DNA from: an uncultured Elusimicrobia bacterium
GTDB lineage: Bacteria; Elusimicrobiota; Elusimicrobia; UBA1565; UBA9628
DNA: 64,000 nucleotides
Assembly (NCBI GenBank): GCA_965283875.1
Contig: CBDIQC010000001.1
Span: 1,086,378 to 1,150,377, forward strand
Direction of reading: 5' to 3'
Part shown: in pieces, positions 12,759 through 46,683 of the stretch
Position numbering within the stretch: position 1 is the first letter of the stretch
How the letters are laid out: each line of letters starts with the position of its first letter
Position numbers and translations under genes: made by a program
Notes under the pieces: model-generated
Databases searched by the model: none
Seen by the model: only the letters and a program-made list of their open reading frames with translations
What the model was told of the DNA's origin: nothing

Positions 12759-12765
12759 GAGCCTT

Positions 12766-23280: not shown

Positions 23281-26276
23281 CAGGCTTTCAGGGAGGCGGA
23301 CTGGGTGGCGCGCAGGCGCAGGCCCAGGTCGATGGTCTCGAGGGTCTGGTCGAGGGTTTTGCGGGCCATCTCGACGTCGTTGGCGGGCGCGCGGAAGAAG
23401 GCCTCGACCTCGGCGCGCCACTCGGGCGAGACGAGGCCGCCGGCCGCCGCGACGACGCGGGTCGCGCCGCGCGGGCCGACCTTGGCGACGAGGGCCGGCC
23501 AGTGGGCCTTCACGAACTCCCAGGCGCGGGCGCGCGAGAGCGGGTTCGACAACAGCCACACGAAGGGCTTCCACGCGTCCTGGGCGCGGATCTCGGGCGA
23601 CAGCGTCATCGCCAGGTAAGACTCGAGCAGCGCGGGCTGCGTGAACTCGGCGAGCGCGCGCAGCATCAGCTCCTTCTGCTCGGGCGTGCGCGGGGAGGCG
23701 AGACGCTCGCGGTACGCGTCGAAGAGCGCCGCGTCGCCGGCGCGGGCGGCGGCGGTGAGCACGACGGGCTGGATGGCGGCGTCCACGGCCGCCGGGTCGT
23801 CGAGGTAGGCGGCCATGCGCGGCGCGACGCCGTCGGCCACGGCCTGGGGCGCGAGCAGCGCGAGAGCGTTGAGCACGGTGGGACGCGTGAGCGTGGCGTC
23901 GGCGGATTCCTTGGGCTTCTTGTCCCAGCCCAGCCGCGCGAGCGCGGGCGCGAAGAAATCCGCGGTGAACGCGGCGAGGCGCGTCCTCTCGACGTCGGTC
24001 GAAGCCAGCTCCTGGCGCAAGGTCTTCAGGTAGCCGGCCGCGTCCTCGAGCAGGAGGCGCGACGGGTCGCCCTTGAAGGCGGCCAACGCGTCGAGGAACT
24101 GATCCACGGGCATCACGCCCGCGCGGGTCTGCGCCCACAGGTGGTTGAGCAGGCCCGAGCTTTCCTCGACGCTCAGCTCCTTGCGATACGCGAGCAGCCC
24201 GGAGAGGGTCCGCGCGTCGAAGGAGAGCCGGTAGTAGCCGACCTCGCCGGCGTTGGGATACGCCCAGAGGACCTCGCCTTTCCCGGGCAGCGTCACGCGC
24301 GCCTGGCGTCCGTCGAGCAGCACGCGGCTCACGCGGGTCTTGCGCTCGCCTTTGAGGCGGTAGCGCACGGTCACGGGCACGGGCCACAGCGACGCGTCCT
24401 CGCGCCCGAACGCGGAGAAACGTTTCTGCGTCAGCGTCAGCTCGCGCCCGGAAAGCGCGGCGCTCACCACGGGCACGCCCGGCCGCTCCAGCCACGCCTC
24501 GGCCATGGCGCGGATGGGTTTGCCCGACGCGGTCTCGATCTCGCGCCAGAAGTGCGCGGACTCGGCGTTTTTGTAGGCGTAACGCTTCATGTAGGCGCGC
24601 ACGCCCTTGAGGAAATCCTTCTCGCCGACGTAGGCCTCGATCATGCGCAGCAGGGCGCCGCCTTTCTCGTAGGACATCGGGTCGAACATGGCCTGGATCT
24701 CGGCGGGCGTGGACGCCTGGGAGCGCACGGCGCGCGTGCCCGGCAGCGCGTCGATGGACAACGGCGCGCGTTTGCCCTGGCCGAAGTCCTCCCACACCTT
24801 CCAGCCCGGCTTCCAGTCGTGCACGACCTTGTAGGCGACCCAGGTGGCGAAAGCTTCGTTGAGCCACAGGTCGTTCCACCAGCCCATCGTCACAAGGTTG
24901 CCGAACCACTGGTGCACGACCTCGTGGCTGACCACCTCGGCCACGCGGCGTTTGGCCGCGTCGGAGGAAAGCTTCGGATCGATGAGGAACGACGCGTCCC
25001 TGAACAGGATGGCGCCCCAGTTCTCCATGGCGCCCGAGGCGAAGTCGGGCGAGACCACGAGGTCGAGCTTGGGCAGCATGTACGGGTAGGCGAACCACTT
25101 GTTGAGGAAGCCGAGCGCCTGCACCGCCGCGTCGAGCGCGAAATCGGCCTGCGCGAGCTGCTCCGGCGGCGCCCACACCGTCACCACGGTTTTGCCGACC
25201 TTGCGGCTCTTGGGCGACAGGCGCGCGGCGAACACGGCGAGCAGATAGGAGGACATCTTCGGCGTCTCGGCGAAGCTCACGACGCGCCGTCCGTCGGCCG
25301 TGACGTCGGACGTCGCGGGCATGTTCGACAACGGCTGCAGGCCCGCCGGCACGTCGAGCGTGAGGCGGAAGGACGCCTTGAAGGCGGGCTCGTCCCAGGA
25401 CGGCAGCACGCGCCGCGCGTGCGTGGGCTCGAGGTGCGTGAACGCCCAGGCCTCTTCCTTGCCGCCGGTTTTGCCGCGCGCCTTGAACAAGCCGCGCATC
25501 AGCTCGTTCATCTTCCCGGAATACTCCAGCTCGACGACGGCGGCGCCCTTTTTGAGCGGCTGCTCGAGAATCAAGGTCACGGTCTCGGCCTTGTCGTCCA
25601 CTAATACCCGCGACGCGTCGAGAACGCGGCCGTTGACCAGCACCCGGTCGTAAGAGAGGTCCAACGAGTTCATCACGAGACGAGTCGTCGGTTCCGTCGC
25701 GTTCAAGCTCGTTTTAACGCGGCCTTTGAACGTTCCGGTCTCCGGCTCGAGCGCGAGGCGCAGGTCGTAACGTTTGGGCTTGACCGACTTCGGCAGGCGG
25801 CCCGCCGGCGCCGCGGGCGTCGCCGGGCTCGCCGGACGCAGGCTCGCGCCGGGCATGTCGGAAAGGCTCCCGCTGGGATTGCAGCCCGCGCAGGCCGGCG
25901 CCAGCTCGCCGAGCTCGCGCGGCAGCAACGCGTCGAAGCCGGCGTCGAGCGCGGCGGCCGGGGCGTCGTGCGCGGCCGTGATGGCGGCGTCGAGGGCTTC
26001 GAGCGCGGCCTTCGGCGCGGCCGCGACGGCGGCGGGCGCCGCGGCGAGCGGCGCGGGGGCGGGAGCGATCGCGGGAGACGGCAGGAAAGACGCGAGCGGC
26101 GCGGCGCTGAAAGGGGCGTTGTTCATGGGTTGGAGGGACGGCGCTCTAGTTGGAACAACGATGAGGCCGCTCAGCGGCCTCACGGACGGCGCGACGCGCG
26201 CGACCGTGCCGGCCGACGCGGGCGAGACGAGGAGCAGCGAAGCGGCGAACGCGCGCGCGGCCTTCATCCCCCGCAT
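23271..26276 (-). CDS. pepN: aminopeptidase N (M1 family), secreted, with N-terminal Ala/Pro-rich linker
   Basis: GAMENWG and HEVVHQWFGNLVTMGWWNDLWLNEAFA (HExxH-18-E) motifs; signal peptide. Confidence 0.9.
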   Translation of the reverse strand: MRGMKAARAFAASLLLVSPASAGTVARVAPSVRPLSGLIVVPTRAPSLQPMNNAPFSAAPLASFLPSPAIAPAPAPLAAAPAAVAAAPKAALEALDAAITAAHDAPAAALDAGFDALLPRELGELAPACAGCNPSGSLSDMPGASLRPASPATPAAPAGRLPKSVKPKRYDLRLALEPETGTFKGRVKTSLNATEPTTRLVMNSLDLSYDRVLVNGRVLDASRVLVDDKAETVTLILEQPLKKGAAVVELEYSGKMNELMRGLFKARGKTGGKEEAWAFTHLEPTHARRVLPSWDEPAFKASFRLTLDVPAGLQPLSNMPATSDVTADGRRVVSFAETPKMSSYLLAVFAARLSPKSRKVGKTVVTVWAPPEQLAQADFALDAAVQALGFLNKWFAYPYMLPKLDLVVSPDFASGAMENWGAILFRDASFLIDPKLSSDAAKRRVAEVVSHEVVHQWFGNLVTMGWWNDLWLNEAFATWVAYKVVHDWKPGWKVWEDFGQGKRAPLSIDALPGTRAVRSQASTPAEIQAMFDPMSYEKGGALLRMIEAYVGEKDFLKGVRAYMKRYAYKNAESAHFWREIETASGKPIRAMAEAWLERPGVPVVSAALSGRELTLTQKRFSAFGREDASLWPVPVTVRYRLKGERKTRVSRVLLDGRQARVTLPGKGEVLWAYPNAGEVGYYRLSFDARTLSGLLAYRKELSVEESSGLLNHLWAQTRAGVMPVDQFLDALAAFKGDPSRLLLEDAAGYLKTLRQELASTDVERTRLAAFTADFFAPALARLGWDKKPKESADATLTRPTVLNALALLAPQAVADGVAPRMAAYLDDPAAVDAAIQPVVLTAAARAGDAALFDAYRERLASPRTPEQKELMLRALAEFTQPALLESYLAMTLSPEIRAQDAWKPFVWLLSNPLSRARAWEFVKAHWPALVAKVGPRGATRVVAAAGGLVSPEWRAEVEAFFRAPANDVEMARKTLDQTLETIDLGLRLRATQSASLKAWSN

Positions 26277-26482
26277 TCTAGCGGACCTCCCTATTAAAGG
26301 AGATGGGACCTCCGGGGCGTCTCGGGCAGGGCAGAGAGCCTAGACCCGAGAGGCGGAAGGCCCATACCGGAAGTCCCAGTCGGACCCGCGCGAAGGCCCA
26401 CGCGGGATAGGGCTACTACCGCGCCCGAACCGGGACCTAGGCCTCATCTCTCCGAACGGGGGCCGCAATTACAATATCCGAC

Positions 26483-29400
26483 ATGATCAAGCGTTCCCTT
26501 TCCCTCCTTATCGCCCTCCTTCTCACCAACCTTCCCGCCGCGGCCGCCGTCACCGTCGGCTCCACCGTCAAAACCTCCCGCGTCGGCGCCGCCGCGACCG
26601 CCGGCGCCGCCAACGCCGGCGCCGGCTTGGGCCTCGTCGCGCCCGCCGTCGGCCTGACCCCTTCGCTGCCCCTCGCCCCGGCCCCCGCCTTGCTCGCCAT
26701 CTCCCGCGTCGAAGCCGGTTCGCCCGACGCCGTGCGGCTGCTCGCCGCCGACGCCGCCCCGGCGGCCGCCTTCGTCGCCGCCGTCGCCGCGCGCCCCGCT
26801 TTGCTCGCCGACGCCGCCGTGCGCGCCGGCGCCGTCTCCGCCCTCGGTGAAGCCGCCGTCGTCCGCCTCGAAGCCGCCGCCGCCTCGTTGTCGGCCCGCG
26901 CGACGACCGACCCCGCCCTCGACGCCGCGTTGACCACGTTGCGCCGCGAGACCCCCGTGGTCTCCCCCGCCAAGGCCCAGGACGCGCTCGCGCGCGTCGC
27001 CCGCGAGCTCGGCGAGATGACGGCCGCCGCCGACGCGCCCGCGCCTTCCGCCGCCCCCGTCGCCGCCCTCAAACCCGCGGCGCGCCGCCCGGGCGCCCTG
27101 CGCCGCTTCGCCATCGCCGCGCTGGCCGCGATGACCCTCTCGCAGGCCGTGCCCGCCGTCTCTCTCGCGCAGGAACACGTCCAGGCGCCCGTGACCGCCG
27201 TCTCCGTCCAGCTCGGCGACCTGCTCGCCCAGGCCGGGCAGCGCCAGGCCGACTACGTCGAGTTCCGCACCGCCGACGACCTCGTCGCGCGCTGGGACGC
27301 CGACACCCATCTTTACGTGAACGGCGACGTCGGCCTCGACCGCGCGGCCCTGCGCCGCCTGGCCGCCTTCCTCGCCGATAAACACTGGACCGTCGTGCTC
27401 GTCCAGGACGGCTCCGGCTTCCGCTGGACCGACGCGCAGGGCCGCACGCACCATGGCGACGTCGCGCTCGAATACGCGACCGGCCAGGGCATCTTCGCCA
27501 AAGGCGGCTTCACCGGCCAAGTGAACGCGGCCACCGGCCAGCGCGACGGCTCCATCATCACCATCGTGCTCCAGCAGCGCGTGCTGCTGCTGCGCAACTC
27601 CGAGGCGCAGAAGACCCGCGGCCTCGACGGCGAGACCCAGTTCCGCGGCAACCTCGACCAGTGGGCCGTCTCCAACATGCGCAACGGCGGCGACCTCTAC
27701 GGCGCCGTGACCGAGACCGTCGAGAACGTCGATCGACTTCTCGCGCAGGCCATCGCCTCCGAGCAGGCCACCGCCGCGACCGCGCTCGCCGAAGCAAAAT
27801 CCCTCCTCTCGCAGTACGAGACCGCTCGCTCCGGCTTCGTCGGCCGCCACCCCGCCGCGACCGTCGGCCGCGCCGACGTCTCCGCCGCGCGCCGCGCCGT
27901 GGCCGAGGCCGAAGCCCTCATCGCCCAGCGCCAGACCGGCCGCGCCGCGACCGTCGCCAACGGCGTCGTGCGCGACCTGCGCTCCGCCGTCGAGCAGATG
28001 AACGGGTTCGACCGCGCCGCGACGTCGGCCGCGGAACGCCTCGCGACCGCGCGCGCCGAGCTCGACGCGCTCGACCGCGCCGCCGCCGCGTACCGCTCGT
28101 CGCACCGCGACGCCTCCGGCGACCTGGCGCGCCCCGGCGTGACCGCCTGGCGCGAGACCCTCGCCGCGGCCGCCCGCCAGCAGGCCGCCGACCCGCGCGC
28201 CGCCGAAGCGACGGCCGCGAGCGTGCTCAACGAGGTGCGCGCCGTCTCCGCCGCCTTGGCCGCCCACCCGTCGGGCGAGCGCCTGATTTCCGAAGCCCGC
28301 GAGCTTCAGGGCTCGCTCGCCGGCCGCCTGCGCGCGGGCGAAGCCCAGCCCCAGCTCACCGCCGCCGCGCAGGCCCTGCGCGAGGCCGCCTCCGCTCACG
28401 AGAACGGCGCCTCGGCCTGGTCCGCGCAGCTCGAGACCGCCAAAACCTCGCTCGCCGAGGCCGAACGCGTCATCGACGCCGCCGACGCCGCGGCCCGGAC
28501 CAAGCTCATCATGTTCTGGGTGTTCAACGTCCTCGGCGGCCTGCTGACCTTGGGCGCGCTCGCCTTCCTCAACCGCCGCGCCGCCCGCGCCGGCCGCAAG
28601 GCCGAGGAAGCGCTGACGGAGTGGGACGGCATCCTCGAGAAGAAGCTCGAGGCCATCTACGGCGGGTCTAAGCCGGGCGAGGCCCTTAATAGCCTCGAAG
28701 CCAAGATCGAAGCCTACGTCGGCCCGACCACGGGCGAGAAGTCGCGCGGCTGGGTCGGCGACACGGCGACGCTGACGGCCGCCATCCGCAAGGACTCCGG
28801 CTACGCCAAGCTCCTGCTCGCCAAGGCGCGTTCCGTGCACGACGAGGCGACCGCGCTGGTGCGCCCGAAGGCGTGGACCACGCTCGGCTGGTGGCGCAAC
28901 CTCGTGTGGCCTTCGGGCTACGCGCTCGCGGAGCGCAAGCTCTCCACCGAGCCCGTCGAGTTCAAGCCCGAGGACGGCCTGCTCGACGCCGCCGGCAAGA
29001 AGTCCGACTGGCGCGACGACCTCTACGGCGAGACCGAGAGCTACAAGCCCTTCAAGCTGCCGTTCAAGGACCTCATGGCGCAGTTCAACGCCAGCGCCAA
29101 GTCCGCCGTCGATGCGGTCACCCGCCTCGAATACGCGGTGACCCAGTCCGGCTCCGTGTTCGACGCGCTCGACGGGAAGATCGCCGCGGCCGCCAAGACG
29201 CGGGCCGGCCTCGTCGTCGCCGACGGCCTGTTCGCCGCGGCCGCCCTCTACGAGAAGGCCCTGCCCGCCGCGAGCGAGCAGGTCAAGACCTCCCGCGTCA
29301 CCGCCCAGAAGGACCCCATCACCGGCATCTACGGCGGCGGCGCCGAAGCCACGCGCATCGTCGAGGACGCCGAGGCTCTCGTGGCCATGCTGACGAAGGC

Positions 29401-31189
29401 GCGGACCGGCTCCTTGGCCGCGGCCGACGCCGCGGCCCTGACCATCGCCGCCAACGCGGTGGAGAACGGCTGGATCGCCGACGACAAGAAGAAGCTCTCG
29501 GCCAAAGCCGACAAGATCGCCGCCGAGACCGCGACGACGGCCGTGTCCGAACGCGTCGCCGAGCTGTCGCTCGAGCTCACCGCGCTCGCCGTGAAAGCCG
29601 CGGACATCGCCAAAGGCGCCGAGGCGCTCACCGCCCTGCGCAAGAGCGTGGACGCCACCGAGACCGCGACGGCCGCCGCCCGCGCGACCATCGGCGCCGC
29701 CCTCGGCCTGCCCGTCGAGAAGATGCTCGTCGAGAAGGGCTCCAACCCCACCGAGTTCGTCGCCACCGCCCGCGAGTTCGCGGAGAAGACGGACGCCCTG
29801 CTCGGCAAAGGCAAACTCGCCGAAGCCAAGGAAGCGTTCGCCTCGGCCGAGATCGCCGCGCGCGCCGCGGCGGCCGTCGTGGCCGCCGGCCTCGAATCCC
29901 TGCGCAGCCACTCCGCCGTCGAGACCGCCCGCCGCGCCGAGACCGAACGCCTCGAAGGCCTCGTGCCCGACCGCCAGCGCGTGCTCGCGTCCATCGAGCG
30001 CGACTTCGCGGCCTCCGTGCTCGCGCTCAACGCGGGCGACGCCGCCCACCCCAACTCCAACGGCACCGTGAAGGACAACGTGGATGAGGCCGAGGCCGCG
30101 CTGTCGGCCGCGACGACGAAGCGCGAGCAGGCCCTGCGCGCGTTCACCGAGGGCAAGGTCATCTCCGCCGCCGACCTCCTCTCCCAGGTCGCCGCGCACC
30201 AGGCCATCGCCCAGCACCGCCTCGACGAGATCGCCGAGAAGCGGACGCGCCTGGACGCCGCCGTCGCCGCCAACAAGTCCCTGCGCGAGAAGCTCGAGGC
30301 GAAGGTCCTCGAATACAAGCGCACCGTCGTCGGTGACCGCCGCACGATGAAGCCGACGCTCAAGACCTACGACGCCGCCGCGCGCGGCCTGGCCGAAGCC
30401 TCCGCGCAGATCGACGCCGCCCAGGGCGACCCGTTCAAGGCCGCCGCCGCGCTCGCGGCCGCGACCGCCGCCCTCGAGCAGGTCTGGGTGTCGGCCCGCA
30501 ACGACTTCGACGCCTACGCCGAGGTCGAACGCAGCCTGCAGGCCGCCTACAACCAGCTCGGCGCGGCCGGCGCGCTCGCCAAGCAGGCGCAAGGCGACAA
30601 CACCGCCGACAGCCCGGCCATCACCGCGGCCTACCGCGAGCTGTCCGCCCTCGAGACCGCCTACCGCTCCGCGGTGGACGCGGCCAAGGGCGAACACGGC
30701 GACTGGAACGCGCTCGACCGCGAATCCGACCGCATCACCAACGAAGCGGCCCACGTGGCCGCCTCGCTCAAGGGCGAGCTCGCCGCCGCCGCGTCGGCCA
30801 CCAGCGCGGTGTCCTCCGCCGCGTCGAAGGTGCGCGAGGCCACGAACTGGTCCGGCTCCTACGGCGTCTATATCCCGGGCTCCCCGGGCGCCTCCCAGCT
30901 CGACAACGCGCGCGCCGCGCTGAGCCGGGGCGACTACCAGGGCGCCATCAGCTCCGCCGAAAGCGCGCGCCGCGCCGCCGCGTCGGCCATCGCCACGGCC
31001 GAGGCCGAGGTGGAGCGCCACCGCGAGGAGGAGCGCCGCCGGCGCCAGCGCGAGGAAGAAGAGCGCCGCCGCCGACAACAGGAAGAAGAGGACCGCCGCC
31101 GCTCGTCGAGCAGCTCCAGCTCGGGCTCCGGCTCCGGCGGCTCGTCGTGGGGCGGCTCGAGCTCCGGCTCCGGCCGGTCGGGCTGGTAA
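26483..31189 (+). CDS. giant (1568 aa) Ala-rich secreted/membrane protein with putative TPM-like domain, central TM helix, coiled-coil C-terminal half and Gly/Ser-rich ...SGW tail
   Basis: signal peptide MIKRSLSLLIALLLTNLPAAAA; region ~aa 270-370 (LDRAALRRLAAFLADKHWTVVLVQ...DGSIITIVLQQRVLLL) resembles TPM/YgcG fold; TM LIMFWVFNVLGGLLTLGALAFL; tail EEERRRRQ...SSSSGSGSGGSSWGGSSSGSGRSGW. Confidence 0.6.
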   Translation: MIKRSLSLLIALLLTNLPAAAAVTVGSTVKTSRVGAAATAGAANAGAGLGLVAPAVGLTPSLPLAPAPALLAISRVEAGSPDAVRLLAADAAPAAAFVAAVAARPALLADAAVRAGAVSALGEAAVVRLEAAAASLSARATTDPALDAALTTLRRETPVVSPAKAQDALARVARELGEMTAAADAPAPSAAPVAALKPAARRPGALRRFAIAALAAMTLSQAVPAVSLAQEHVQAPVTAVSVQLGDLLAQAGQRQADYVEFRTADDLVARWDADTHLYVNGDVGLDRAALRRLAAFLADKHWTVVLVQDGSGFRWTDAQGRTHHGDVALEYATGQGIFAKGGFTGQVNAATGQRDGSIITIVLQQRVLLLRNSEAQKTRGLDGETQFRGNLDQWAVSNMRNGGDLYGAVTETVENVDRLLAQAIASEQATAATALAEAKSLLSQYETARSGFVGRHPAATVGRADVSAARRAVAEAEALIAQRQTGRAATVANGVVRDLRSAVEQMNGFDRAATSAAERLATARAELDALDRAAAAYRSSHRDASGDLARPGVTAWRETLAAAARQQAADPRAAEATAASVLNEVRAVSAALAAHPSGERLISEARELQGSLAGRLRAGEAQPQLTAAAQALREAASAHENGASAWSAQLETAKTSLAEAERVIDAADAAARTKLIMFWVFNVLGGLLTLGALAFLNRRAARAGRKAEEALTEWDGILEKKLEAIYGGSKPGEALNSLEAKIEAYVGPTTGEKSRGWVGDTATLTAAIRKDSGYAKLLLAKARSVHDEATALVRPKAWTTLGWWRNLVWPSGYALAERKLSTEPVEFKPEDGLLDAAGKKSDWRDDLYGETESYKPFKLPFKDLMAQFNASAKSAVDAVTRLEYAVTQSGSVFDALDGKIAAAAKTRAGLVVADGLFAAAALYEKALPAASEQVKTSRVTAQKDPITGIYGGGAEATRIVEDAEALVAMLTKARTGSLAAADAAALTIAANAVENGWIADDKKKLSAKADKIAAETATTAVSERVAELSLELTALAVKAADIAKGAEALTALRKSVDATETATAAARATIGAALGLPVEKMLVEKGSNPTEFVATAREFAEKTDALLGKGKLAEAKEAFASAEIAARAAAAVVAAGLESLRSHSAVETARRAETERLEGLVPDRQRVLASIERDFAASVLALNAGDAAHPNSNGTVKDNVDEAEAALSAATTKREQALRAFTEGKVISAADLLSQVAAHQAIAQHRLDEIAEKRTRLDAAVAANKSLREKLEAKVLEYKRTVVGDRRTMKPTLKTYDAAARGLAEASAQIDAAQGDPFKAAAALAAATAALEQVWVSARNDFDAYAEVERSLQAAYNQLGAAGALAKQAQGDNTADSPAITAAYRELSALETAYRSAVDAAKGEHGDWNALDRESDRITNEAAHVAASLKGELAAAASATSAVSSAASKVREATNWSGSYGVYIPGSPGASQLDNARAALSRGDYQGAISSAESARRAAASAIATAEAEVERHREEERRRRQREEEERRRRQQEEEDRRRSSSSSSSGSGSGGSSWGGSSSGSGRSGW

Positions 31190-31193
31190 AACC

Positions 31194-32963
31194 TTGCTGA
31201 TCCGGCTCGTCGCGCTCGCCGTCGTCGCCCTGGGGCTCAGCCCCGCGGCGGCGAGCGTGCGCGCGGTCCGGCCCGTCGCCGCGGCTTCTTCCGTTCGTCC
31301 CGTCGTTTTACCCGTCGTGCCGTTCGCCCTCGACCTCGCGCCGTCCGCCGGCATCCGGGCCGCTCTCACGCCGACGCTCCGCGCGCCCAACGACGCGCCC
31401 AAGTCGGCGTCCCAACTGCGCGCCGAGGCCGCCGATGCCGTGGCTCAATGGCGCGCAAGCCGTGCTCCGGCGACCGCCGTCGCTGCCGCCGCGCCCGTCG
31501 CCGCCGTTAACGTCGCCCCGCTCACGCCGGCCGAAGCCATCGCCACCGCGCAGACGAGCGGCCAGGCGCTGTCGCGCCTGGTCGAACTAGGAGTCATCAA
31601 ACCCCAGGACATCCCCGAAGGCGAGACCGACCGCGTCGCCCTCCTTAAAAGGGTCTGGGACGGCGTTTCCGCGAAGCTGACCTCCGACGTCCTGCCGGTC
31701 GATGCCTCCTGGGCCGTGCCCGCCATCACCGTCAAACGCGACGGCAAAACCTACCTCGTGCACGGCGTCGCCCACGGCGAGCTGTACCCGCCGAACCGCC
31801 GCCAGGTGGCGCGCCTCGTGGCCCAGATCGAGAAAAACGGCCACGCCTTGCTCTCCGAGCAGAACCTGCCCGCGCATTACGGCTTCGCCTACGGCCAGGA
31901 GACTATGGACCAGGCGGTCGATCGCCACGGCGTGCCGGCGCGCGTCACCGACGCGGCCGGCGGTCCGGCCTCCGGCGGCATCGCCGCGGTGCACGCCGTG
32001 CTGCGCTGGGCCGCGCTCGGCGGGACGGGTTACGCCTGGCTGCGCGCGGCGCTTTCCCCGACCGACCCGCTGGTCTGGGCGCTGGCCGTCGGCGTCTCGC
32101 TCGGCCTGTGGCTGCTCGCCCGCGGCCTGCAGCCCCTCAACCGCCTCGCGTTGCTTTCGGCCGCGCGCGACGCCGAGCGCCTCGGCTCCAAAGACCTCGC
32201 CGCCCACCTGCGTCGCGAAGCGCGCGCCTTCTTCGGCCCGCGCGGCGTGAAGGCCGAGGACATCCTGCGCCTGCACCTGCCGCCGGGACCGGGCGCGGCG
32301 TCCGATTCGTTGTCCCCCCGCTCATCGGCCATCGCGGGCGCCGCGCTCGCCGCCTCCGCCTCGGTCGTGCACGTGCTGGTCGGCTACCGCCACGCCGCCG
32401 AGATCGCTTGGCGCCTGGCCGGCGCGGACGCCGCCGTCGGGACCGCGGCGCGGGCGACCGGAGCCTCCGAGCGCAACGGCGGTTCGGTGACGAAGCCCTT
32501 GTTCTTCGGCGTGCTCGGCGCCGTCGCTTTGGCCTTCGGGCTCGCTCAGATGAACACGGGCTACATGCTCGCCGGCGGCTTCTGGCTGGGGTCGGCCCTG
32601 TGGGACTACCTTAATAAGGACAAACCCGCCGAAGCCATGACGGCGCGCGCGCTGCTCGGCTACCCGCCCCATGTCTATCTGCTGATGGCCGCCGCCTTCG
32701 TCACCGCCGTGGTCGCCCCCGTCGCCGCGCCGCTCGCGATGCTCGGGCTCGCCGCCTGGTCCGCGCTGACGAGCAAGACGGCCCGGGAATACTTCGACGC
32801 CTCCCAGGCGTTATTCACCCTTTCCATCGGCCTCGGCTTCGGGGCCCTGCTGGCGTACGGCTTGCACGGCTTCGACATCGGCTTCATCGCCGCCGGCGTC
32901 TCCGCCGTGCTGGCCAACATCATCGGCAAACTCATGAAATTCGCCGCGATCCGGAAGTCCTAG
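31194..32963 (+). CDS. TraB/GumN-like protein with C-terminal polytopic membrane domain (TTG start)
   Basis: signal/TM N-terminus, KTYLVHGVAHGE resembles TraB/GumN (Y)LxGTxH motif, about 6 C-terminal TM helices. Confidence 0.4.
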   Translation: MLIRLVALAVVALGLSPAAASVRAVRPVAAASSVRPVVLPVVPFALDLAPSAGIRAALTPTLRAPNDAPKSASQLRAEAADAVAQWRASRAPATAVAAAAPVAAVNVAPLTPAEAIATAQTSGQALSRLVELGVIKPQDIPEGETDRVALLKRVWDGVSAKLTSDVLPVDASWAVPAITVKRDGKTYLVHGVAHGELYPPNRRQVARLVAQIEKNGHALLSEQNLPAHYGFAYGQETMDQAVDRHGVPARVTDAAGGPASGGIAAVHAVLRWAALGGTGYAWLRAALSPTDPLVWALAVGVSLGLWLLARGLQPLNRLALLSAARDAERLGSKDLAAHLRREARAFFGPRGVKAEDILRLHLPPGPGAASDSLSPRSSAIAGAALAASASVVHVLVGYRHAAEIAWRLAGADAAVGTAARATGASERNGGSVTKPLFFGVLGAVALAFGLAQMNTGYMLAGGFWLGSALWDYLNKDKPAEAMTARALLGYPPHVYLLMAAAFVTAVVAPVAAPLAMLGLAAWSALTSKTAREYFDASQALFTLSIGLGFGALLAYGLHGFDIGFIAAGVSAVLANIIGKLMKFAAIRKS

Positions 32964-33093
32964 GCCCGCCGTCCCGAGGACCCGGATTGGCTAGGCCCAA
33001 AGAATTCGCGAAATGACCCCTGTGGTCTCATTCGCCCGAACGACGGTCCGCGATAGAATCAGGATTCGACGTACCCAAATCAGTGGAGGCCTA

Positions 33094-36000
33094 ATGCTTA
33101 AGAAGTCCCTTGCGACGACCATCTCCGCCGCGCTTATCCTCACCGGCCCCGGCCGCGCCGCCGTCTCCGCCGCCGTCAATGTGGCCCGCCCCGTCGCGGC
33201 GCCCCGCCTGACCACCCCTCTCGTAACCGCTTACGGCGCGCCGCGCATGGCGCCCCTGTCCACGAACCTGCTGACCGCGTCCGGCGCCCGCCTCGCGCCC
33301 GCGTTCCCGGCCCCCAACGCCGCGCCCGCCGCCTCCGTCATCAACGGCAACGTCGCGACGCCCGCCGGCGCCCCCGTCGCCGCGCCCGCCCCGGCCGACG
33401 CCCCGACCGCTCTCGGCTCCGTGTCCGTCGCCGCCGAAGCCGTCTCCGCTCCGAACGCTTCCCCCGCCGCCCAGACCGGCGCGCTCGACGGCCTCTACGA
33501 AGGCGCCGTGCGCTCCGATGACGCCGGCGACGTGCTCGGCGGCGTTTCCGCCGGCTCCGCGCGCCTGGCGCCCGTCAGCGCGGCCCCGGCCTCGGCCCGC
33601 GCGTCGGTTCCCTCCGCCAAAAACGGCGGACTGCTGCTCGAAGTCGGCATCGGCGCCGCGGTCATCACCGTGATCGCCCTCGTCTCCAAACCTTTCCGCG
33701 ACATCCTCGCCCGCCTGTGGAACGTGACGCTCGGCCGCCTCTCCATCTTCGCCAAGAAGGCCGAGACCCCCGAGGTGCTCGCCCAGCGCATCGTGGACCA
33801 GCTCAACGCCGCCAAACCCGTCTATAACCGCAAGGTCCAGGAAGCCTCCACCCTCGTCGAGAAGCTGAAGCTCCAGATTGATTCTGAAAAGGCGAAAGTT
33901 GCTGATTTGGAAACCAGCATCACCGCCCTGCTCTCCGACTCCGACCCGGCCAACGACACCATGGCGGCCGGCCTCATCAACCAGCAGAAGACGCTCGCCG
34001 GCTCCATCGCGACCTCCGAGGAGCAGCTCAAGCTCTCCGAAGTCACGCTCCAGGACATCAAGGACGAGCGCACCCGTTTCTTCGCCGAGCGCGAGGAGAC
34101 CATCGCCAAGATCAACGCCAAGCTGACCCAGGCCAAGGCCGCCGAAATCCGCAAACAAATGGCCGAGCTCAAGGGCGGCTTCCAGATCGGCGATCTTAAG
34201 GACAACCTCGACCGCCTCGACCAGGCCGTCAACGATAAGATCGCCGACGCCAACGGCACGGCCGACTCCGTCGCCTCCAACCCCGACGAGATCCTCAAGA
34301 AGGCCAAGGACTCGGTCCGCAACAACGAGGCCCTCGCCGAAATCGAGCGCCGCAAGAAGGAGATCGCCGAGAAGGCCGCTCAGAAGAACGGCGGCGCCAT
34401 CGGCCAGATGACCTGGGTCGGGATCGGAGCCGCGACGTTAATCGCCGTCGGAATGATCTACGGCTCGGTGTTCACGATCGGCGCCGCCGTCGCGGCGTTC
34501 GCGGTCACGACGCTTTACGCCGTCGCCACCAAGCGGGCCTCCAGCGCGGCCGCTCCGGCTCGCGACCTGACCATGACCGAAGTCCAGGTCCTCAACGTGG
34601 TCGGCATCGCCGTCTCCATTGGCGCCGGTTTCTACTTCGACGCCATCCTGCTGGGCTTGCTCGGCACCTTCGTCGCCCCCATCCCCGTCATCGTGGGCTA
34701 CGTGCTCCTGGAGAACCTGTCCGGCAACAAGGTGAACATGCCGGGCTTCCGCTTCGCCCCCAGCTTCAAGTGGAACGGCAAACCCCAGGACCCGTCCGAT
34801 AAAAACGGTGGCGACGTCTTGACCATCGCCGGCGCCGCCCTGGCCGTCGTCGCGGTCGCCGCCGTCGCCTCCAAATCGTTCCGCGACATCCTCGCCCGCC
34901 TGTGGAACGTGACGCTCGGCCGCCTGTCCATCTTCGCCAAGAAGGCCGAGACGCCAGAGGTGCTCGCCCAGCGCATCATCGACCAGCTCAACGCCGCCAA
35001 GCCCCTCTACAACCGCAAGGTCGCCGACGCCTCCACCTTGGTCGAGAGCCTCAAGCTCCAGATCCAGTCGCAGAAGGAGAAGTCCGCCGAGCTCGACGCC
35101 AACGTGACCGCGCTGCTCTCCGACGCGGACGCGAGCAACGACCTGATGGCCGCGACCCTCCTCAACCAGAAGAAGACCATCGACGCGTCCACCGCCGCCT
35201 CAGAGGAGCAGCTCAAGATCTCCGAGGTCACCCTCCAGAACATCAAAGACGAGCGCACCTCCTTCTTCGCCGAGCGCGAGGAGACCATCGCCAAGATCAA
35301 CGCCAAGCTGACCCAGGCGAAGGCCGCCGAGATCCGCAAGCAGATGGCCGAGCTCAAGGGCGGCTTCCAGATCGGCGACCTCAAGGACAACCTCGACCGC
35401 CTCGACCAGGCCGTCAACGACAAGATCGCCGACGCCAACGGCGCCGCCGACTCCGTCGCCTCCAACCCCGACGAGATCCTCAAGAAGGCCAAGGACTCGG
35501 TGCGCAACTCCGACGCGCTCGCCGAGATCGAACGCCGCAAGAAGGCCATCGCCGAAGCCGCCGCCAAGAAGAACGGCGGCGACGTCTTGACCATCGCCGG
35601 CGTCGCCCTGGCCGTCGTCGCGGTCGCCGCCGTCGCCTCCAAATCGTTCCGCGACATCCTCGCCCGCCTGTGGAACGTGACGCTCGGCCGCCTCTCCATC
35701 TTCGCCAAGAAGGCCGAGACCCCCGAGGTGCTCGCCCAGCGCATCGTGGACCAGCTCAACGCGGCCAAACCCGTCTATAACCGCAAAGTTCAGGAAGCTT
35801 CTACGCTCGTTGAAAAGCTCCGGCTCCAAATCGCTAGCGAAAGGGCCAAAGTCGCCGACCTCGAAACCAGCATCACCGCCTTGCTCTCCGACTCCGACCC
35901 GGCCAACGACACCATGGCGGCCGGCCTCATCAACCAGCAGAAGACGCTCGCCGGCTCCATCGCCGCGTCCGAGGAGCAGCTCGCGCTTTCCGAGGTCACC

Positions 36001-38163
36001 CTCCAGAACATCAAGGACGAGCGCACCTCCTTCTTCGCCGAGCGCGAAGAGACCATCGCCAAGATTAACGCCAAGCTGACCCAGGCGAAGGCCGCCGAGA
36101 TCCGCAAGCAGATGGCCGAGCTCAAGGGCGGCTTCCAGATCGGCGATCTTAAGGACAACCTCGACCGCCTCGACCAGGCCGTCAACGACAAAATCGCCGA
36201 CGCCAACGGCGCCGCCGACTCCGTCGCCTCCAACCCCGACGAGATCCTCAAGAAGGCCAAGGATTCGGTCCGCAACAACGAGGCCCTCGCCGAAATCGAG
36301 CGCCGCAAGAAGGAGATCGCCGAGAAGGCCGCGCAGAAGAACGGCGGCGCCATCTCCCAGGCGACCGCGCTCAGCCTCTTCGGTAAAGCCATCGCGGTCG
36401 GCTTCGCGCTCGCGATGCCCATCGTCGCGTCCCTCGTCATCGCCGGTGCCGGCCTGCTCTCCTTGGTCCTGCCTTCCGAGAACGGCCGCAAGGTCGGCCG
36501 CCAGCTCGCCGTCATCGGCCTGCTGACCCTCGTGGTCGGCGCGGTGCCGCTGCTGCTGGGCGTCAACATGGGCTTCCTGGGCATCGCCACCTTCGGCGGC
36601 TCCTTCGGCTTCCTCATCCCCGGCGGCCTCGCGTTGATGGGCGGCATCCTCGCCAACCTCAAGGCCAACAAGTCGGACGCCTCCGTCGCGGCGTCGGTGC
36701 CCCAGGCCACCGCGCCCGTCGTGGTCGCGGCCCCGACGGCTCCTTCGACTCCCGTCGAGACCGCCGCGCCGTCGAAGGGCGCTTCGTTCTCCATCAAGCC
36801 GCTCCTCGACATCATGTCGCGGGTGTGGAACGCCTTGCTCGGCGCCCTCGGCCTGGGCGTGCGCAAGCTCGAAACTCCGGAAATCCTCGCCCAGCGCGTC
36901 ATCGACCAGCTCAACGCCGCCAAGCTCGCCTACAACAACAAGGTCAAGGACGCGTCCACCTTGGTCGAGAGCCTCAAGCTCCAGATCGGCAAGCAGAAGT
37001 CGGACTCGGCCAAGCTCGACGAGGCCGTGACCATCCTGCTGTCGGACTCCGACACGGCCAACGACCTCCAGGCCGCCGGCATCCTCAACCAGAAGAAGAC
37101 GCTCGACGCCTCCACGGCCGCGACCGAGGAGCAGCTCGCCATCGCCCAGCAGGGCCTGCAGGGCATCAAGGAAGACCGGGCCCGCTTCTTCGCCGAGCGC
37201 GAGGAGACGATGGCCAAGATCACCGCCAAGCTGACCCAGGCCAAGGCCGCCGAGATCCGCGCCCAGATGGCCGCGCTTAAGGGCGGCTTCTCCATCGGCG
37301 ACTTGAAAGACAACCTCGACCGCCTCGACTCCGCCGTCAACGACCGCGTCGCCGGCGCCAACGGCGCGGCCGACTCCGTCGCCTCCAACCCCGACGAGAT
37401 TCTCAAGAAGGCCAAAGACGCCGCCCGTTCCTCCGAGGTCAACGACGAGCTCGAGCGCCGCAAGCGCGAGATCGCCGAAGCCGCCGCCAAGAAAAACGGC
37501 GGGCAGATTCCCGGCCTCGTCTGGGCCGGCGCGCTCGCAGGCCTGGCGCTCCAGGTCGCGGCCGTGATGACCATCGGCTGGACCGCGGCGCTGCCGCTGC
37601 TCGGCGTGATGGGTTGGTCGGGCCTGGCGGCCGGCGTCGTCAGCTATTTCGTTCCCGACACCCGCACCGGCGCCATCGCCGGCGCCATCGCGGGCGCCAT
37701 CCTCGTCGCGCTTTCGGCCGTCGCCTCGCCCGAGATGCTCCTGCTCGGCGCGGCCTCCGGCTCCTTCGTGGGCTGGTTCGGCGCGCACGGCAACAATCAG
37801 CCCGGCATCGGCGGCTTCATCGGCGCCACGTTCGGCGGCATGATGGTCGGCATGACGCTCCCGGCCTGGCTGGGCGCGCTCGGCGCCAAGAAGCTGCTCG
37901 ACAACGCCGGAAACCGCAACGGCGGCTCGGTGACGTTGCTGCCCGTGCTGGCCGGCGCCACCGGCCTGGCGGCGTTAGCCGCCCTCATCGGCGGCGGCAT
38001 CGCGGGGTTCGTCATCGGCGCGGCGCTCGGCTACGTCTATCTCGAGCACCTCTCGGCCCATAAGAACAGCCGCGACATCAACGACCTCGTCTTCGGCGTC
38101 ATCGGCTACGGCGCCATCGGCGCCATCATCACCGCCATCGGCTCCGTCCTCTACTTCATCTAA
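33094..38163 (+). CDS. giant (~1690 aa) membrane protein with four tandem PspA/IM30 (Vipp1/LiaH, ESCRT-III-like) domains
   Basis: RBS ggagg 33085-89; signal peptide; four ~245-aa units each preceded by a TM helix and each containing (I)LARLWNV..G.LSIFAKKAETPEVLAQRI(V/I)DQLNAAK... matching the PspA N-terminal consensus (f.r.wd....LdkaEdPekmldQ.irdm) followed by long coiled coil; multi-TM Gly-rich C-terminus. Confidence 0.7.
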   Translation: MLKKSLATTISAALILTGPGRAAVSAAVNVARPVAAPRLTTPLVTAYGAPRMAPLSTNLLTASGARLAPAFPAPNAAPAASVINGNVATPAGAPVAAPAPADAPTALGSVSVAAEAVSAPNASPAAQTGALDGLYEGAVRSDDAGDVLGGVSAGSARLAPVSAAPASARASVPSAKNGGLLLEVGIGAAVITVIALVSKPFRDILARLWNVTLGRLSIFAKKAETPEVLAQRIVDQLNAAKPVYNRKVQEASTLVEKLKLQIDSEKAKVADLETSITALLSDSDPANDTMAAGLINQQKTLAGSIATSEEQLKLSEVTLQDIKDERTRFFAEREETIAKINAKLTQAKAAEIRKQMAELKGGFQIGDLKDNLDRLDQAVNDKIADANGTADSVASNPDEILKKAKDSVRNNEALAEIERRKKEIAEKAAQKNGGAIGQMTWVGIGAATLIAVGMIYGSVFTIGAAVAAFAVTTLYAVATKRASSAAAPARDLTMTEVQVLNVVGIAVSIGAGFYFDAILLGLLGTFVAPIPVIVGYVLLENLSGNKVNMPGFRFAPSFKWNGKPQDPSDKNGGDVLTIAGAALAVVAVAAVASKSFRDILARLWNVTLGRLSIFAKKAETPEVLAQRIIDQLNAAKPLYNRKVADASTLVESLKLQIQSQKEKSAELDANVTALLSDADASNDLMAATLLNQKKTIDASTAASEEQLKISEVTLQNIKDERTSFFAEREETIAKINAKLTQAKAAEIRKQMAELKGGFQIGDLKDNLDRLDQAVNDKIADANGAADSVASNPDEILKKAKDSVRNSDALAEIERRKKAIAEAAAKKNGGDVLTIAGVALAVVAVAAVASKSFRDILARLWNVTLGRLSIFAKKAETPEVLAQRIVDQLNAAKPVYNRKVQEASTLVEKLRLQIASERAKVADLETSITALLSDSDPANDTMAAGLINQQKTLAGSIAASEEQLALSEVTLQNIKDERTSFFAEREETIAKINAKLTQAKAAEIRKQMAELKGGFQIGDLKDNLDRLDQAVNDKIADANGAADSVASNPDEILKKAKDSVRNNEALAEIERRKKEIAEKAAQKNGGAISQATALSLFGKAIAVGFALAMPIVASLVIAGAGLLSLVLPSENGRKVGRQLAVIGLLTLVVGAVPLLLGVNMGFLGIATFGGSFGFLIPGGLALMGGILANLKANKSDASVAASVPQATAPVVVAAPTAPSTPVETAAPSKGASFSIKPLLDIMSRVWNALLGALGLGVRKLETPEILAQRVIDQLNAAKLAYNNKVKDASTLVESLKLQIGKQKSDSAKLDEAVTILLSDSDTANDLQAAGILNQKKTLDASTAATEEQLAIAQQGLQGIKEDRARFFAEREETMAKITAKLTQAKAAEIRAQMAALKGGFSIGDLKDNLDRLDSAVNDRVAGANGAADSVASNPDEILKKAKDAARSSEVNDELERRKREIAEAAAKKNGGQIPGLVWAGALAGLALQVAAVMTIGWTAALPLLGVMGWSGLAAGVVSYFVPDTRTGAIAGAIAGAILVALSAVASPEMLLLGAASGSFVGWFGAHGNNQPGIGGFIGATFGGMMVGMTLPAWLGALGAKKLLDNAGNRNGGSVTLLPVLAGATGLAALAALIGGGIAGFVIGAALGYVYLEHLSAHKNSRDINDLVFGVIGYGAIGAIITAIGSVLYFI
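33688..37500 (+). repeat. four ~750-bp intragenic tandem repeats encoding the PspA-like units (units 1 and 3 >90% nt identity)
   Basis: direct comparison of 33691-34260 with 35644-36210; also produces repeated antisense ORFs in the track. Confidence 0.8.
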
Positions 38164-38181
38164 CAACGTCGCTTCGAACCG

Positions 38182-38218
38182 AAGGCCCCGCGCTCCCACG
38201 CGGGGCCTTCTTCTTTTC
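38182..38218 (+). terminator. rho-independent terminator after the tetra-PspA gene
   Basis: aaggccccgcg-ctccca-cgcggggcctt followed by cttcttttc. Confidence 0.75.
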
Positions 38219-38284
38219 ACGGGTATGAGCCGTGTCGCCGGTTCTATTCGTTAGTCTCCGCGTATGCCGGTTCAAACCGCCCGA

Positions 38285-39166
38285 TTAGAAACGCCAGCCG
38301 AGGTCGAAGCGGTGGGCGCGGCCGAGCTCGCCCATCGGCTTGATGGCGTAATCGACGCGCAGCGCGCCGAACTCGACGCCCAGGCCGAAGGCGAGGCCTT
38401 TGGCCGCATCGAGGCTGGACCCGCCGCCGACGGCGCCTTTGGTTGAGTAACCGCCGCGCAGCGCCACGCCGGGTCGCGCCGTCCACTCCGCGCCGAAGCC
38501 GGCGTCGTTTTGTCCCACGCGCGGGCGGTATTCGTAGTCGAGCCCCAGGCGCAACGCGTCGCGTTTCCAAGACAGGCCCGCGGCCGTAGCCAGCGGCAGG
38601 TCGTTAGTCTGGTCTCGGTAACGCAGGCCGGGGCCGAGGTTGCGTACGGCCGCGGCGGCCGTGAAGTCGCCGATGACTCGCGAGAAGCCGACGTCGGCCG
38701 CGAGGCCTTGCGCCTCGGCCTCGGCGATGTGCGAGCGCAGATATTTGACCGTCGCGCCCAACGAACCCGCGTCGTGCTTGCGAGCGTAGCCGAATGCCAA
38801 CGCAGCGTCCGAGGCGCCGAAATTCCCGGTGGGACGCCCCGCCGCGTCGCGCCCAGACAGGTTTCCGTGGCTGAGATAGGTGAACGCCGCGCCGATGGCG
38901 CCGCCCATAGCGGGGTGTGCGTAGCCGCCGTAGTCCAGGCGCGTGGAGTCTGCTAGTTCGGCGTGCGTGAACACGGCGTCGCGTTTCTCAAGCACCGCGA
39001 TTCCCGCGGGATTCCAGTAAATCGCCGTAGCGTCGGCGGCCATCGCCGTGCCCGCGCCGCCCAACGCCACGGCGCGTGCGCCCACGGGCAATTCCAGAAA
39101 CGAAGCCGTCTCCGCGGCGCGAAGACCGGCCGGCGCGAACAGAAGGGCGAGAAGCAAGCCCCTCAT
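38285..39166 (-). CDS. T9SS-associated outer-membrane beta-barrel protein, PorV/PorP(SprF) family-like
   Basis: signal peptide; N-terminal FLELPVGARAVALGGAGTAMAADATAIYWNPAGIA (NPAG motif), C-terminal aromatic residue (…DLGWRF); ATGA-coupled directly downstream of the CTD-cargo gene. Confidence 0.55.
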   Translation of the reverse strand: MRGLLLALLFAPAGLRAAETASFLELPVGARAVALGGAGTAMAADATAIYWNPAGIAVLEKRDAVFTHAELADSTRLDYGGYAHPAMGGAIGAAFTYLSHGNLSGRDAAGRPTGNFGASDAALAFGYARKHDAGSLGATVKYLRSHIAEAEAQGLAADVGFSRVIGDFTAAAAVRNLGPGLRYRDQTNDLPLATAAGLSWKRDALRLGLDYEYRPRVGQNDAGFGAEWTARPGVALRGGYSTKGAVGGGSSLDAAKGLAFGLGVEFGALRVDYAIKPMGELGRAHRFDLGWRF

Positions 39167-45871: not shown

Positions 45872-46622
45872 ATGGCTAAGCCTCCTCTTGAACCGTCACC
45901 GCGAATCGCCGAGGTCGTACACATCGAAGACGATCCGGATTGGTCGAGCCTCGTCGGCCGATGGGTGCGGCAAATAAGGACTCACCTTCCATTCTGTCCG
46001 CTCCCGCGACGAGCTTAAAGCCTATCTGAGCCGCGTGGAGTCTGCGCCGCGCTGCGTCATCATCGACGCGGGCCTTGGCGCTGACAGCGGACTGGACCTT
46101 TGCGAGAGGCTCAAGGATTCTCCGAGCCTCCAGGCCGCTCCGATTATCGTGTTGACGGGGGGCGGCGTATCAAGCGATGAGTGTCTGAAACGCGGCGCCC
46201 TCCAAGTCGTTTTGAAGGACGGGCGGACAGAACAGTCCTTAAACGCGGTGCTGGGCGCGGTATTAGACCAGCATGAACGCTCGCGCGGTGTTGTGCAAGC
46301 GGGTGATTTGAACCTCGATCCGAGGGAGCGCACGGTTACGGCGACTAACGGTCGAGCCGTCGTGTTGGCGCCAGGCCTATTCGCCGCTTTTATGAGACTG
46401 GTGTCGCTCACCCCGGAGACGGTTGCGGACATCGAGCTTTATACGGCCTTCATCGAGCGTCGTCCCTACGACAAGCGCGACCATGAGTTGTCCGTCAGGG
46501 GCACTCTTCGCAATTACGTCTCACGACTACGCGGCGAGTTGGGGCCGGTCATCGGCGCGCGCATCATGAGGCGTCCTGCCGGCTATGCGTACGTTCCGGC
46601 CAACCCCGTGCCGCGGCTATAG
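45872..46622 (+). CDS. OmpR-family (winged-helix) response regulator, receiver domain interrupted by frameshift near 45970-45980
   Basis: MAKPPLEPSPRIAEVVHIEDDPDW... (receiver start) runs into stop at 46017; continuation ...GLTFHSVRSRDELKAYLSRVESAPRCVIIDAGL... in another frame (stop at 45975 upstream) joins ORF 46035..46622 with trans_reg_C-like C-terminus. Confidence 0.55.
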
Positions 46623-46645
46623 CCGATTGATGTATTTGAAATTGA

Positions 46646-46674: not shown

Positions 46675-46683
46675 GGTGTTCGC

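Follow-up and report, generated by a model that had tools for sequence, protein, structure and literature searches.

Why should a PspA-type membrane scaffold, a giant alanine-rich membrane protein and a member of an unannotated protein family be encoded side by side? This question is raised by three adjacent genes, here called g1, g2 and g3, in a 64-kb stretch of DNA (64,000 nucleotides; hereafter the window) from an uncultured Elusimicrobia bacterium (NCBI GenBank assembly GCA_965283875.1, contig CBDIQC010000001.1, positions 1,086,378 to 1,150,377 of the forward strand). The three are co-directional open reading frames (ORFs) on the plus strand, and their gaps of 4 and 130 nucleotides (nt) agree with those given in an earlier reading of this DNA (the original prediction). 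We propose that the trio is probably an Elusimicrobiota-specific module for membrane maintenance or remodelling, of the Psp/ESCRT-III type. The lengths of the products are given in amino acids (aa).

26483–31189, plus strand: g1, a 1568-aa alanine-rich membrane protein
31194–32963, plus strand: g2, a 589-aa membrane protein with a TTG start codon
33094–38163, plus strand: g3, a 1689-aa polytopic membrane protein with four PspA_IM30 units

The longest ORF of g3 spans 33013–38163. The ATG at 33094 is its likeliest start, since GGAGG lies 7 nt 5' of this codon and orthologues begin at the matching MLKKSL or MFKKSL; the gap of 130 nt between g2 and g3 follows from this start.

PspA and Vipp1 are bacterial ESCRT-III proteins. 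Their recruitment to membranes and their organization there are open questions, and few partners are on record, namely PspBC, LiaI and YdjGHI. In the trio, recruitment of PspA would be hard-wired, as the protomers are concatenated, built into the membrane and always accompanied by a giant TPM protein and by g2. The locus could also serve to define three unannotated families, which are the helical domain of g1, the g2 domain and the transmembrane (TM) cassettes, and it raises the question of which side of a membrane an ESCRT-III-like polymer can work on.

PspA units and conserved gene order

The product of g3 matches PF04012 (PspA_IM30) in four stretches (E 5.5e-26, 92 bits), which bears out the earlier description of a tetra-PspA protein. 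Taken singly, all 18 units from the window and the orthologous loci match positions 2–217 of the 220 in this model, with a best E of 3.4e-11, and unit 1 of the window alone scores 35.4 bits against a gathering cutoff of 33.9. Like PspA, IM30, Vipp1 and LiaH, the g3 units cover the domain end to end, including the position of the N-terminal amphipathic helix (FRDILARLWNVTLGRLSIFAKK). They are divergent, since neither one unit nor the 18-unit profile reached a PspA or Vipp1 chain in a search of PDB sequences. The four units are arranged as follows.

33700–34407, plus strand: PspA unit 1, with a single hydrophobic anchor helix before it
34885–35580, plus strand: PspA unit 2, 85% aa identity to unit 1, with a four-helix TM cassette and an anchor helix before it
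35653–36360, plus strand: PspA unit 3, 96% aa identity to unit 1, one hydrophobic helix away from unit 2
36808–37509, plus strand: PspA unit 4, 68% identity, without an immediate anchor helix and with a multi-TM region C-terminal to it

Units 1 and 3 are also 86–95% identical at the DNA level, and the two identities together point to a recent internal duplication. TM and anchor helices were assigned from hydropathy, which gives crude counts; it places 12 hydrophobic segments in the 1689 aa of g3, some of them long enough for two helices. Multi-helix cassettes follow units 1, 3 and 4, and a single anchor helix stands directly before each of units 1–3. Soluble or peripheral behaviour, with binding by an amphipathic helix only, is a usual mark of PspA that g3 does not share. 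Compared to canonical PspA, its divergent units are covalently concatenated with TM cassettes, which makes g3 a variant in architecture and leaves its domain membership intact.

Tandem PspA repeats occur in less than 2% of homologues (PMC11237479). Orthologues of g3 carry two units (L002, 866 aa), three (L014 and L016) or four (L006 and L008). In a complete Elusimicrobiota genome (L015, CP096137.1), four units lie within 11041–15653 and the last of them is in a separate adjacent ORF, so the concatenation appears to be evolutionarily fluid. In the proposed mechanism, g3 would be the effector, which contributes two to four complete PspA/IM30 protomers per polypeptide and is tethered to the inner membrane by its anchor helices and multi-TM cassettes. 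Such tethering would hold the scaffold permanently at the membrane, pre-concentrated for polymerization.

The trio is conserved as a unit. Genomic contexts were retrieved for six g1 homologues, and a scan of one genome per species gave 15 loci, all from Elusimicrobiota. When five query pieces were used in tblastn, they were found in the order g1 TPM segment, g1 helices, g1 C-terminal domain, g2 core and PspA units. The window and all sufficiently long loci (about 20: L001–L003, L005–L008 and L010–L024) share the order g1-g2-PspA. The original prediction was to be given up if profile matches for g1 and g2 and a conserved neighbourhood were both lacking. The profile matches did not appear, as described below, and the conservation of the neighbourhood is very strong.

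g1 and the PspA–TPM partnership

Whole or in pieces, g1 has no match in Pfam, NCBIfam or PADLOC. Alanine makes up 23.5% of the protein, and database entries that are 100% identical exist for both g1 and g2. About 20 members of the g1 family are known, nearly all of them from Elusimicrobiota (20-sequence alignment). The sole exception in this alignment is P0020 from Thermoanaerobaculia, which lacks the segment corresponding to aa 1–205. All g1 features lie on the plus strand.

26483–27097, plus strand: signal-peptide-like N-terminus (aa 1–22) and variable Ala/Pro-rich extension (aa 23–205)
27110–27169, plus strand: weakly hydrophobic internal segment (aa 210–229), which aligns with the N-terminal signal peptide of P0020
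27254–27757, plus strand: TPM-fold domain (about aa 258–425), from a predicted model and Foldseek
27758–28501, plus strand: helical region of about 250 aa (aa 426–673) between the TPM domain and the TM helix, conserved in the family
28502–28573, plus strand: TM helix (aa 674–697), hydropathy 2.04, with RRAARAGRK next to it
28574–31012, plus strand: post-TM helical domain of about 810 aa, conserved in the family
31013–31186, plus strand: Arg/Glu-rich stretch and Gly/Ser-rich tail ending ...SGRSGW, with an invariant terminal W

The single central TM segment that had been predicted is present as one strong helix (aa 674–697), next to the weaker hydrophobic segment at aa 210–229. At the end of the helix, N697 and R699 are invariant in the family. 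Further invariant motifs lie in the large helical domain, namely GD..HP..NGT..DN..E (aa 1185–1202), GDP (aa 1315–1317) and W.G..GV...G.PG (aa 1456–1469). At a Thermoanaerobaculia locus (L004, 8325–17729), the g1 homologue has 1271 aa and no N-terminal extension; a sigma-54 activator is encoded upstream of it and a partner-switching set (HATPase_c_2, STAS and SpoIIE) downstream.

The TPM fold of g1 was recognized by structure prediction. An AlphaFold2 model of aa 236–445 (pLDDT 87.5, pTM 0.81) was compared with the PDB by Foldseek, and the first nine ranks were all TPM domains. These targets include 7tbr, 2kw7, Psb32 (8c7i), BA41 (5anp), AtTLP18.3 (3pvh/3ptj) and BA42. The match probabilities are 0.80–1.00 and drop after rank 9, with E values from 1.5e-3 to 0.2. 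Normalized to the target, the TM-scores are 0.25–0.67, and 0.53–0.67 for single-domain targets. The model thus supports a TPM alpha/beta fold for aa 258–425.

The earlier proposal of a TPM-fold segment holds at the level of the predicted fold; sequence-level methods do not recover it. In the suggested check, PF04536 matched neither g1 nor the segment taken alone, nor any of the 17 family members that were scanned at E<=10. A profile of the segment searched against PDB sequences, in which TPM chains are included, returned nothing relevant, and profile comparison by hhalign with E. coli YgcG was negative. On the basis of this model, g1 would be an example of a TPM fold that is invisible to hidden Markov models (HMMs).

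A second resemblance lies in the C-terminus. The g1 protein ends in ...GSSSGSGRSGW, which had been called YgcG-style, and E. coli YgcG (PF04536) does end similarly in ...GGGGASGRW. Like g1, YgcG combines a signal peptide, a TPM fold, a TM segment and a Ser/Gly-rich tail. Unlike YgcG, g1 fails the Pfam model and adds a helical stalk of 250 aa and a helical domain of about 810 aa around its TM helix. In addition, E. coli YgcG is not adjacent to pspA.

The closest described system is that of Bacillus subtilis. An association between PspA and TPM proteins has been published, and YdjH is a conserved partner of PspA (PMC11237479). YdjH interacts with PspA and YdjI, and both YdjG and YdjH are needed to recruit PspA to the membrane (PMC8581546). 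The current model is a SamG-SamH-SamI-PspA system (bioRxiv 10.64898/2026.02.06.704340). As in the B. subtilis pspA-ydjGHI (samGHI) operon region, a PspA gene is linked to a gene for a TPM membrane protein in the trio, where the linkage of g1 and g3 recurs in about 20 loci. YdjH (SamH) also resembles g1 in its parts, with a TPM domain of extracytoplasmic type, a TM helix, a low-complexity or coiled-coil C-terminus and a Gly-rich tail with an aromatic last residue. The C-termini of YdjH and YdjG read ...SRGSF and ...MGGGF, as deduced from primer sequences in PMC8581546.

Several differences separate the two systems. In the trio, PspA is concatenated (two to four units) and membrane-integrated, whereas B. 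subtilis PspA is soluble. The g1 protein is about six times larger than YdjH, carries the conserved helical domain of about 810 aa, and has a TPM domain that is undetectable by sequence. The trio adds the conserved partner g2, from an unannotated family, and its order is TPM protein, g2 and PspA, with two predicted promoters. Classical Psp components were also looked for, and neither PspB/C nor an AAA+ activator of the PspF type was found among the trio or six scanned neighbours. Compared to canonical PspA systems, the trio has no PspF/sigma-54, PspB/C or LiaI-type partners.

The earlier suggestion of an uncharacterized membrane-stress or membrane-remodelling module is consistent with the PspA–TPM partnership exemplified by YdjH. 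The pairing itself is not new, as it had already been published (PMC11237479, PMC8581546). A term search of two Psp surveys and an ESCRT-III review found no mention of a membrane-integrated multi-PspA protein, a giant TPM protein or Elusimicrobia, and a literature search for Elusimicrobia together with PspA gave nothing related. We regard the trio as a variant whose novelty lies in a concatenated PspA built into the membrane, the giant size of its TPM protein and a partner from a new family.

As a very divergent TPM protein of the YgcG/YdjH type, g1 would be the organizer or sensor of this module. It would expose its TPM domain and helical stalk on one side of the membrane, and its domain of about 810 aa with the Gly/Ser tail on the other. 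YdjH (SamH) has been proposed as the membrane anchor and organizer of the PspA scaffold, and by analogy g1 may dock or organize the PspA polymer. It may also relay the state of the envelope across the membrane.

g2 and its candidate membrane scaffolds

No Pfam or NCBIfam family matches g2. A profile search found 52 relatives, all unannotated, and every one with a named source is from Elusimicrobiota or Elusimicrobia. An exhaustive HMMER search of 1.84 billion representative sequences raised the number to 74. Some of these, including one from Acidimicrobiales, are about 260 aa long and lack a signal peptide, and others are giant proteins that bear the N-terminal half of the g2 domain alone. This half (helical bundle, hairpin, HGxxH and E) is found inside the multidomain proteins P0126 (2462 aa), P0128, P0129, P0132, P0138 (3692 aa) and P0139, and one such protein bears the label of a Ser/Thr protein kinase in its source. 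Ten distant g2 relatives were scanned against Pfam and gave no meaningful match (one weak DUF).

31491–32468, plus strand: conserved alpha/beta core of g2 (aa 100–425)
31971–32120, plus strand: hydrophobic helical hairpin inside the core (aa 260–309)
32487–32960, plus strand: C-terminal multi-TM cassette (aa 432–589), in only some orthologues (P0022, P0025 and P0027)

Within the core, alignment shows H190, H194, E222, D239, R376, S377 and H400 to be invariant. The AlphaFold2 model of aa 100–425 (pLDDT 90.0, pTM 0.87) is an alpha/beta core broken by a long helical hairpin. When it was compared with the PDB by Foldseek, no match was better than E 0.4. The C-terminal cassette of P0025 and P0027 (RDLTMTE...) closely resembles the g3 cassette that follows PspA unit 1 in the window (34416–34880), and the C-terminal extension of g2 in the window is a different multi-TM segment. 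Cassettes in both proteins are bounded by [KR]-N/A-G-G.

These boundaries, together with the conserved residues of g2, bear on another explanation, in which the trio encodes a polyprotein and its protease. Here g2 would be a very distant TIKI/TraB/GumN hydrolase that cleaves g3 and possibly g1, and cuts at the Lys-x-Gly-Gly module boundaries would release or activate single PspA protomers. The order of residues in g2, with GVAH (G191-H194), E222, R376-S377 and GYRH (G397-H400), resembles, without significance, that of TraB/GumN/PrgY proteins (PF01963), which carry GxxH, E, R-[NS] and GxxH on a core of beta-alpha-beta type, as judged by inspection. The spacing is similar in E. coli YbaP (GSIH at H41, E67, R217-N218 and GALH at H241), although these are short motifs without statistics. 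Two features set g2 apart from TraB/GumN, namely the hydrophobic hairpin within its domain and a helical bundle at its N-terminus. K/R-N/A-G-G does occur at module boundaries of g3 and of the g2 extensions; the Asn of NGG is not conserved, however, and orthologues have AGG, DGG or SGG.

Statistical comparisons did not support a TraB/GumN identity for g2, and this part of the original prediction was not upheld. None of 48 g2-family members matched PF01963 at E<=10, which was the check suggested earlier. The g2 family (98 sequences) compared by hhalign with YbaP and six plasmid TraB/GumN proteins gave Prob 0.4% (E 0.14), with a TraB/GumN alignment that is shallow at seven sequences, and a smaller g2 alignment against YbaP gave Prob 0.6%. 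The sole local match pairs the RS...GxxH segment of g2 with RN...GxxH. Foldseek of the g2 core found no solved member of the TIKI superfamily, such as ChaN or the erythromycin esterases, and a search of YbaP against PDB sequences returned nothing relevant. We regard the processed polyprotein as quite unlikely.

Two distant loci show that the g2 family has other companions. In L033 (2623–6563), the g2 relative P0108 is followed by a protein of 901 aa with an N-terminal leader like that of g3. In place of PspA units, this protein has two Band_7/SPFH domains, each with a hydrophobic segment before it. In L034 (5081–14634), a g1-like protein of 1638 aa (30% identity over 1298 aa, E 8e-100) is encoded next to a g2-like protein of 569 aa, and a protein of 967 aa with a signal peptide, a coiled coil and a TM segment comes third. 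The third protein has no Pfam match and no detectable PspA similarity. It was tried as a divergent PspA, which the absence of a PspA signal left unsupported, and it may be either a scaffold of another kind or one that has diverged very far.

Proteases are the classical partners of SPFH proteins, as in HflK/C-FtsH and stomatin-NfeD. The SPFH partner in L033 can on this basis be counted in favour of a proteolytic g2. It also likens the family to the SPFH/Band-7 systems with dedicated partners (HflK/C-FtsH, stomatin-NfeD and YdjI-PspA), in that a g2 relative stands beside a tandem, TM-anchored SPFH protein. The window differs from these systems in having no SPFH domain, and g2 is neither FtsH-like nor NfeD-like. 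As judged from L033 and L034, the g2 family travels with different membrane scaffolds, which suggests that it is a generic scaffold partner. In the proposed membrane module, g2 would be a membrane-embedded, enzyme-like protein that acts on or with the scaffold, and the pairing of a g2 relative with a tandem SPFH protein instead of PspA is the reason for assigning it a generic role. A chassis that accepts SPFH domains instead of PspA would link both major families of bacterial membrane scaffolds through a shared partner.

Certain observations weigh against the membrane-module reading. A g1 homologue occurs without adjacent g2 or PspA in the Thermoanaerobaculia locus L004. The TPM assignment comes from one predicted model with modest Foldseek E values, and sequence support for it is absent. 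The g1 domain of about 810 aa resembles neither PspA nor SPFH, and no Pfam or PDB entry; hhalign found no similarity between PspA units and the g1 helical regions on either side of the TM helix, and g1 showed no internal repeats in this comparison. Scans of g1–g3 gave neither a zinc-ribbon match, as expected of YdjG, nor an SPFH match, as expected of YdjI, which makes the analogy with B. subtilis partial. Finally, a cytoplasmic location of the PspA units cannot be assumed, given the signal-peptide-like starts and the single helices between adjacent units.

Membrane sidedness, transcription and neighbouring genes

Each protein of the trio begins with a positive stretch, a hydrophobic stretch and an AxA-like motif, as signal peptides do. 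The consequences for g3 depend on its leader and its anchors. Membrane-spanning anchors would put successive PspA units on opposite sides. Non-spanning anchors, combined with leaders that do direct export, would leave all units in the periplasm, and leaders without an export function would keep all of them in the cytoplasm.

An extracytoplasmic or two-sided scaffold is a further alternative. In this case the leaders would be genuine Sec signal peptides and some or all PspA units would be periplasmic. With non-spanning anchors, all units would share a side with the TPM domain and the g2 core. The module would then work on the inner membrane from its outer face, or would sandwich this membrane. 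Apart from the shared signal-peptide-like starts, the order of segments fits such an arrangement. In L001 and L008, no hydrophobic segment lies between unit 1 and the leader with its Ala/Pro region; the window, L002 and L005 have one anchor helix there. Units 2 and 3 in the window, units 3 and 4 in L008 and units 1 and 2 in L006 are set apart by exactly one hydrophobic stretch of 26–32 aa, and counting by hand gives an even number of helices for the inter-unit cassettes. The anchors have net positive charge on either flank, which fits anchors that do not span the membrane.

To our knowledge, no PspA or ESCRT-III protein outside the cytoplasm or stroma is on record, and this counts against export. 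The small distant g2 relatives P0131 and P0133–P0135 have no signal peptide, which implies a cytoplasmic g2 domain in those proteins. The leader could be uncleaved, or could be a reverse anchor, and the argument depends on crude hydropathy counts. We consider an extracytoplasmic or two-sided location unlikely. If it were true, the trio would be the first extracytoplasmic or bilayer-sandwiching scaffold of the ESCRT-III type. A broader combination of exported PspA units, PspA and SPFH domains that are interchangeable on one chassis, and g2 as a new scaffold-processing enzyme is likewise improbable on balance.

A related feature extends beyond the trio. A signal-peptide-like start with an Ala/Pro-rich extension of 100–200 aa is shared by g1 (26483–27097), g2 (31194–31490), g3 (33094–33620) and a divergently encoded M1 aminopeptidase (N-terminus at 25780–26276, minus strand). 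The motif L-x-P-[ST]-L occurs at aa 58 in both g1 and g2, with LAPAF in g3, and motifs like PN-x-AP occur in g2, g3 and the M1 peptidase. This shared start could be a lineage-specific N-terminal module or a sorting signal.

The membrane module receives further support as a coordinated gene set from a promoter motif shared by g1 and g3. The predicted transcription signals of the locus are as follows.

26395–26415, plus strand: imperfect inverted repeat GGCCCA-N9-(T)GGGC(C/T), a candidate operator about 25 nt upstream of the g1 CTCAT box
26443–26475, plus strand: P1 promoter-like motif CTCAT-N22-TACAAT, which ends 7 nt before the g1 ATG
33027–33059, plus strand: P3 promoter-like motif CTCAT-N22-TAGAAT, 34 nt upstream of the g3 start
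38181–38217, plus strand: intrinsic-terminator-like hairpin (12-bp stem, 10 GC) with a T-tract, 3' of g3

A scan of the region for sigma-70 consensus promoters found none, and the motif was detected solely by comparison across loci. Alignment of the g1 upstream regions shows a CTCAT box 21–22 nt upstream of a TAnnnT hexamer, which lies about 7 nt before the ATG. CTCAT-N21-22-TAnnnT has two matches in the window on both strands, P1 and P3, against a mean of 0.8 in shuffled sequence. Among the related loci scanned, it precedes g1 in all 18 whose sequence extends far enough upstream of this gene (17 trio loci plus L034). It precedes g3 in 15 related loci, as TAGAAT in 14 and as TAACAT in L021. 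Stray matches elsewhere amount to three in about 300 kb of related loci scanned. Loci with the motif at g1 or g3 starts include L001, L005, L006, L008, L012–L019, L021 and L023.

The presence of the motif before both g1 and g3 suggests that g1-g2 and g3 are two co-regulated transcription units that share one promoter type, and not one operon. The original prediction had placed a terminator only after the last gene. The hairpin at 38181–38217 is indeed the strongest terminator-like site within 26200–38400, but a single transcription unit is not supported, as P3 lies in the gap of 130 nt. Upstream of the g1 ATG, P1 is not followed by a Shine-Dalgarno sequence, and the predicted g1 transcript looks leaderless or nearly so. 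The CTCAT box is too far from the -10 hexamer to be a standard sigma-70 -35 element, and may be a site for an activator or an alternative sigma factor. No sigma-54 motif of the GG-N10-GC type was found upstream of g1 in eight loci. The inverted repeat GGCCCA-N9-TGGGCC recurs upstream of g1 in several loci of an eight-locus alignment and is a perfect palindrome in L002.

The genes around the trio suggest one more reading, in which it belongs to a surface or secretion system with neighbours that encode PorV-like, IPT/TIG, M1 peptidase and RHS proteins. These genes adjoin in the window, and genes for an M1 peptidase and adenosine deaminase also lie upstream in L001, L005 and L008. They do so only in these closer relatives. 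The flanks are completely different in L002, L006 and L007, as they are in L034, and the trio is intact in all four. Moreover, g1 and g3 are the only genes of the window with the shared promoter motif. A link to the PorV, IPT/TIG and RHS neighbours was rejected because the flanks are not conserved, and such a system is highly improbable.

Two groups of neighbouring genes can be described separately. The minus strand at 38285–45747 encodes a PorV-like outer-membrane protein of 293 aa in translational coupling with a protein of 2194 aa, which carries a ZU5 domain and 10 or more IPT/TIG domains. This pair is convergent with g3 and does not accompany the trio in other loci. An array of RHS/YD-repeat genes occupies 46585–62480, with three paralogues from about 46585, 50751 and 56321 whose N-terminal regions are nearly identical. 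Across the first 46 kb of the window, the guanine-cytosine (GC) content is about 70%, and in the array it falls from about 0.70 to 0.57–0.62. The array looks like a polymorphic-toxin island, possibly one that was horizontally acquired.

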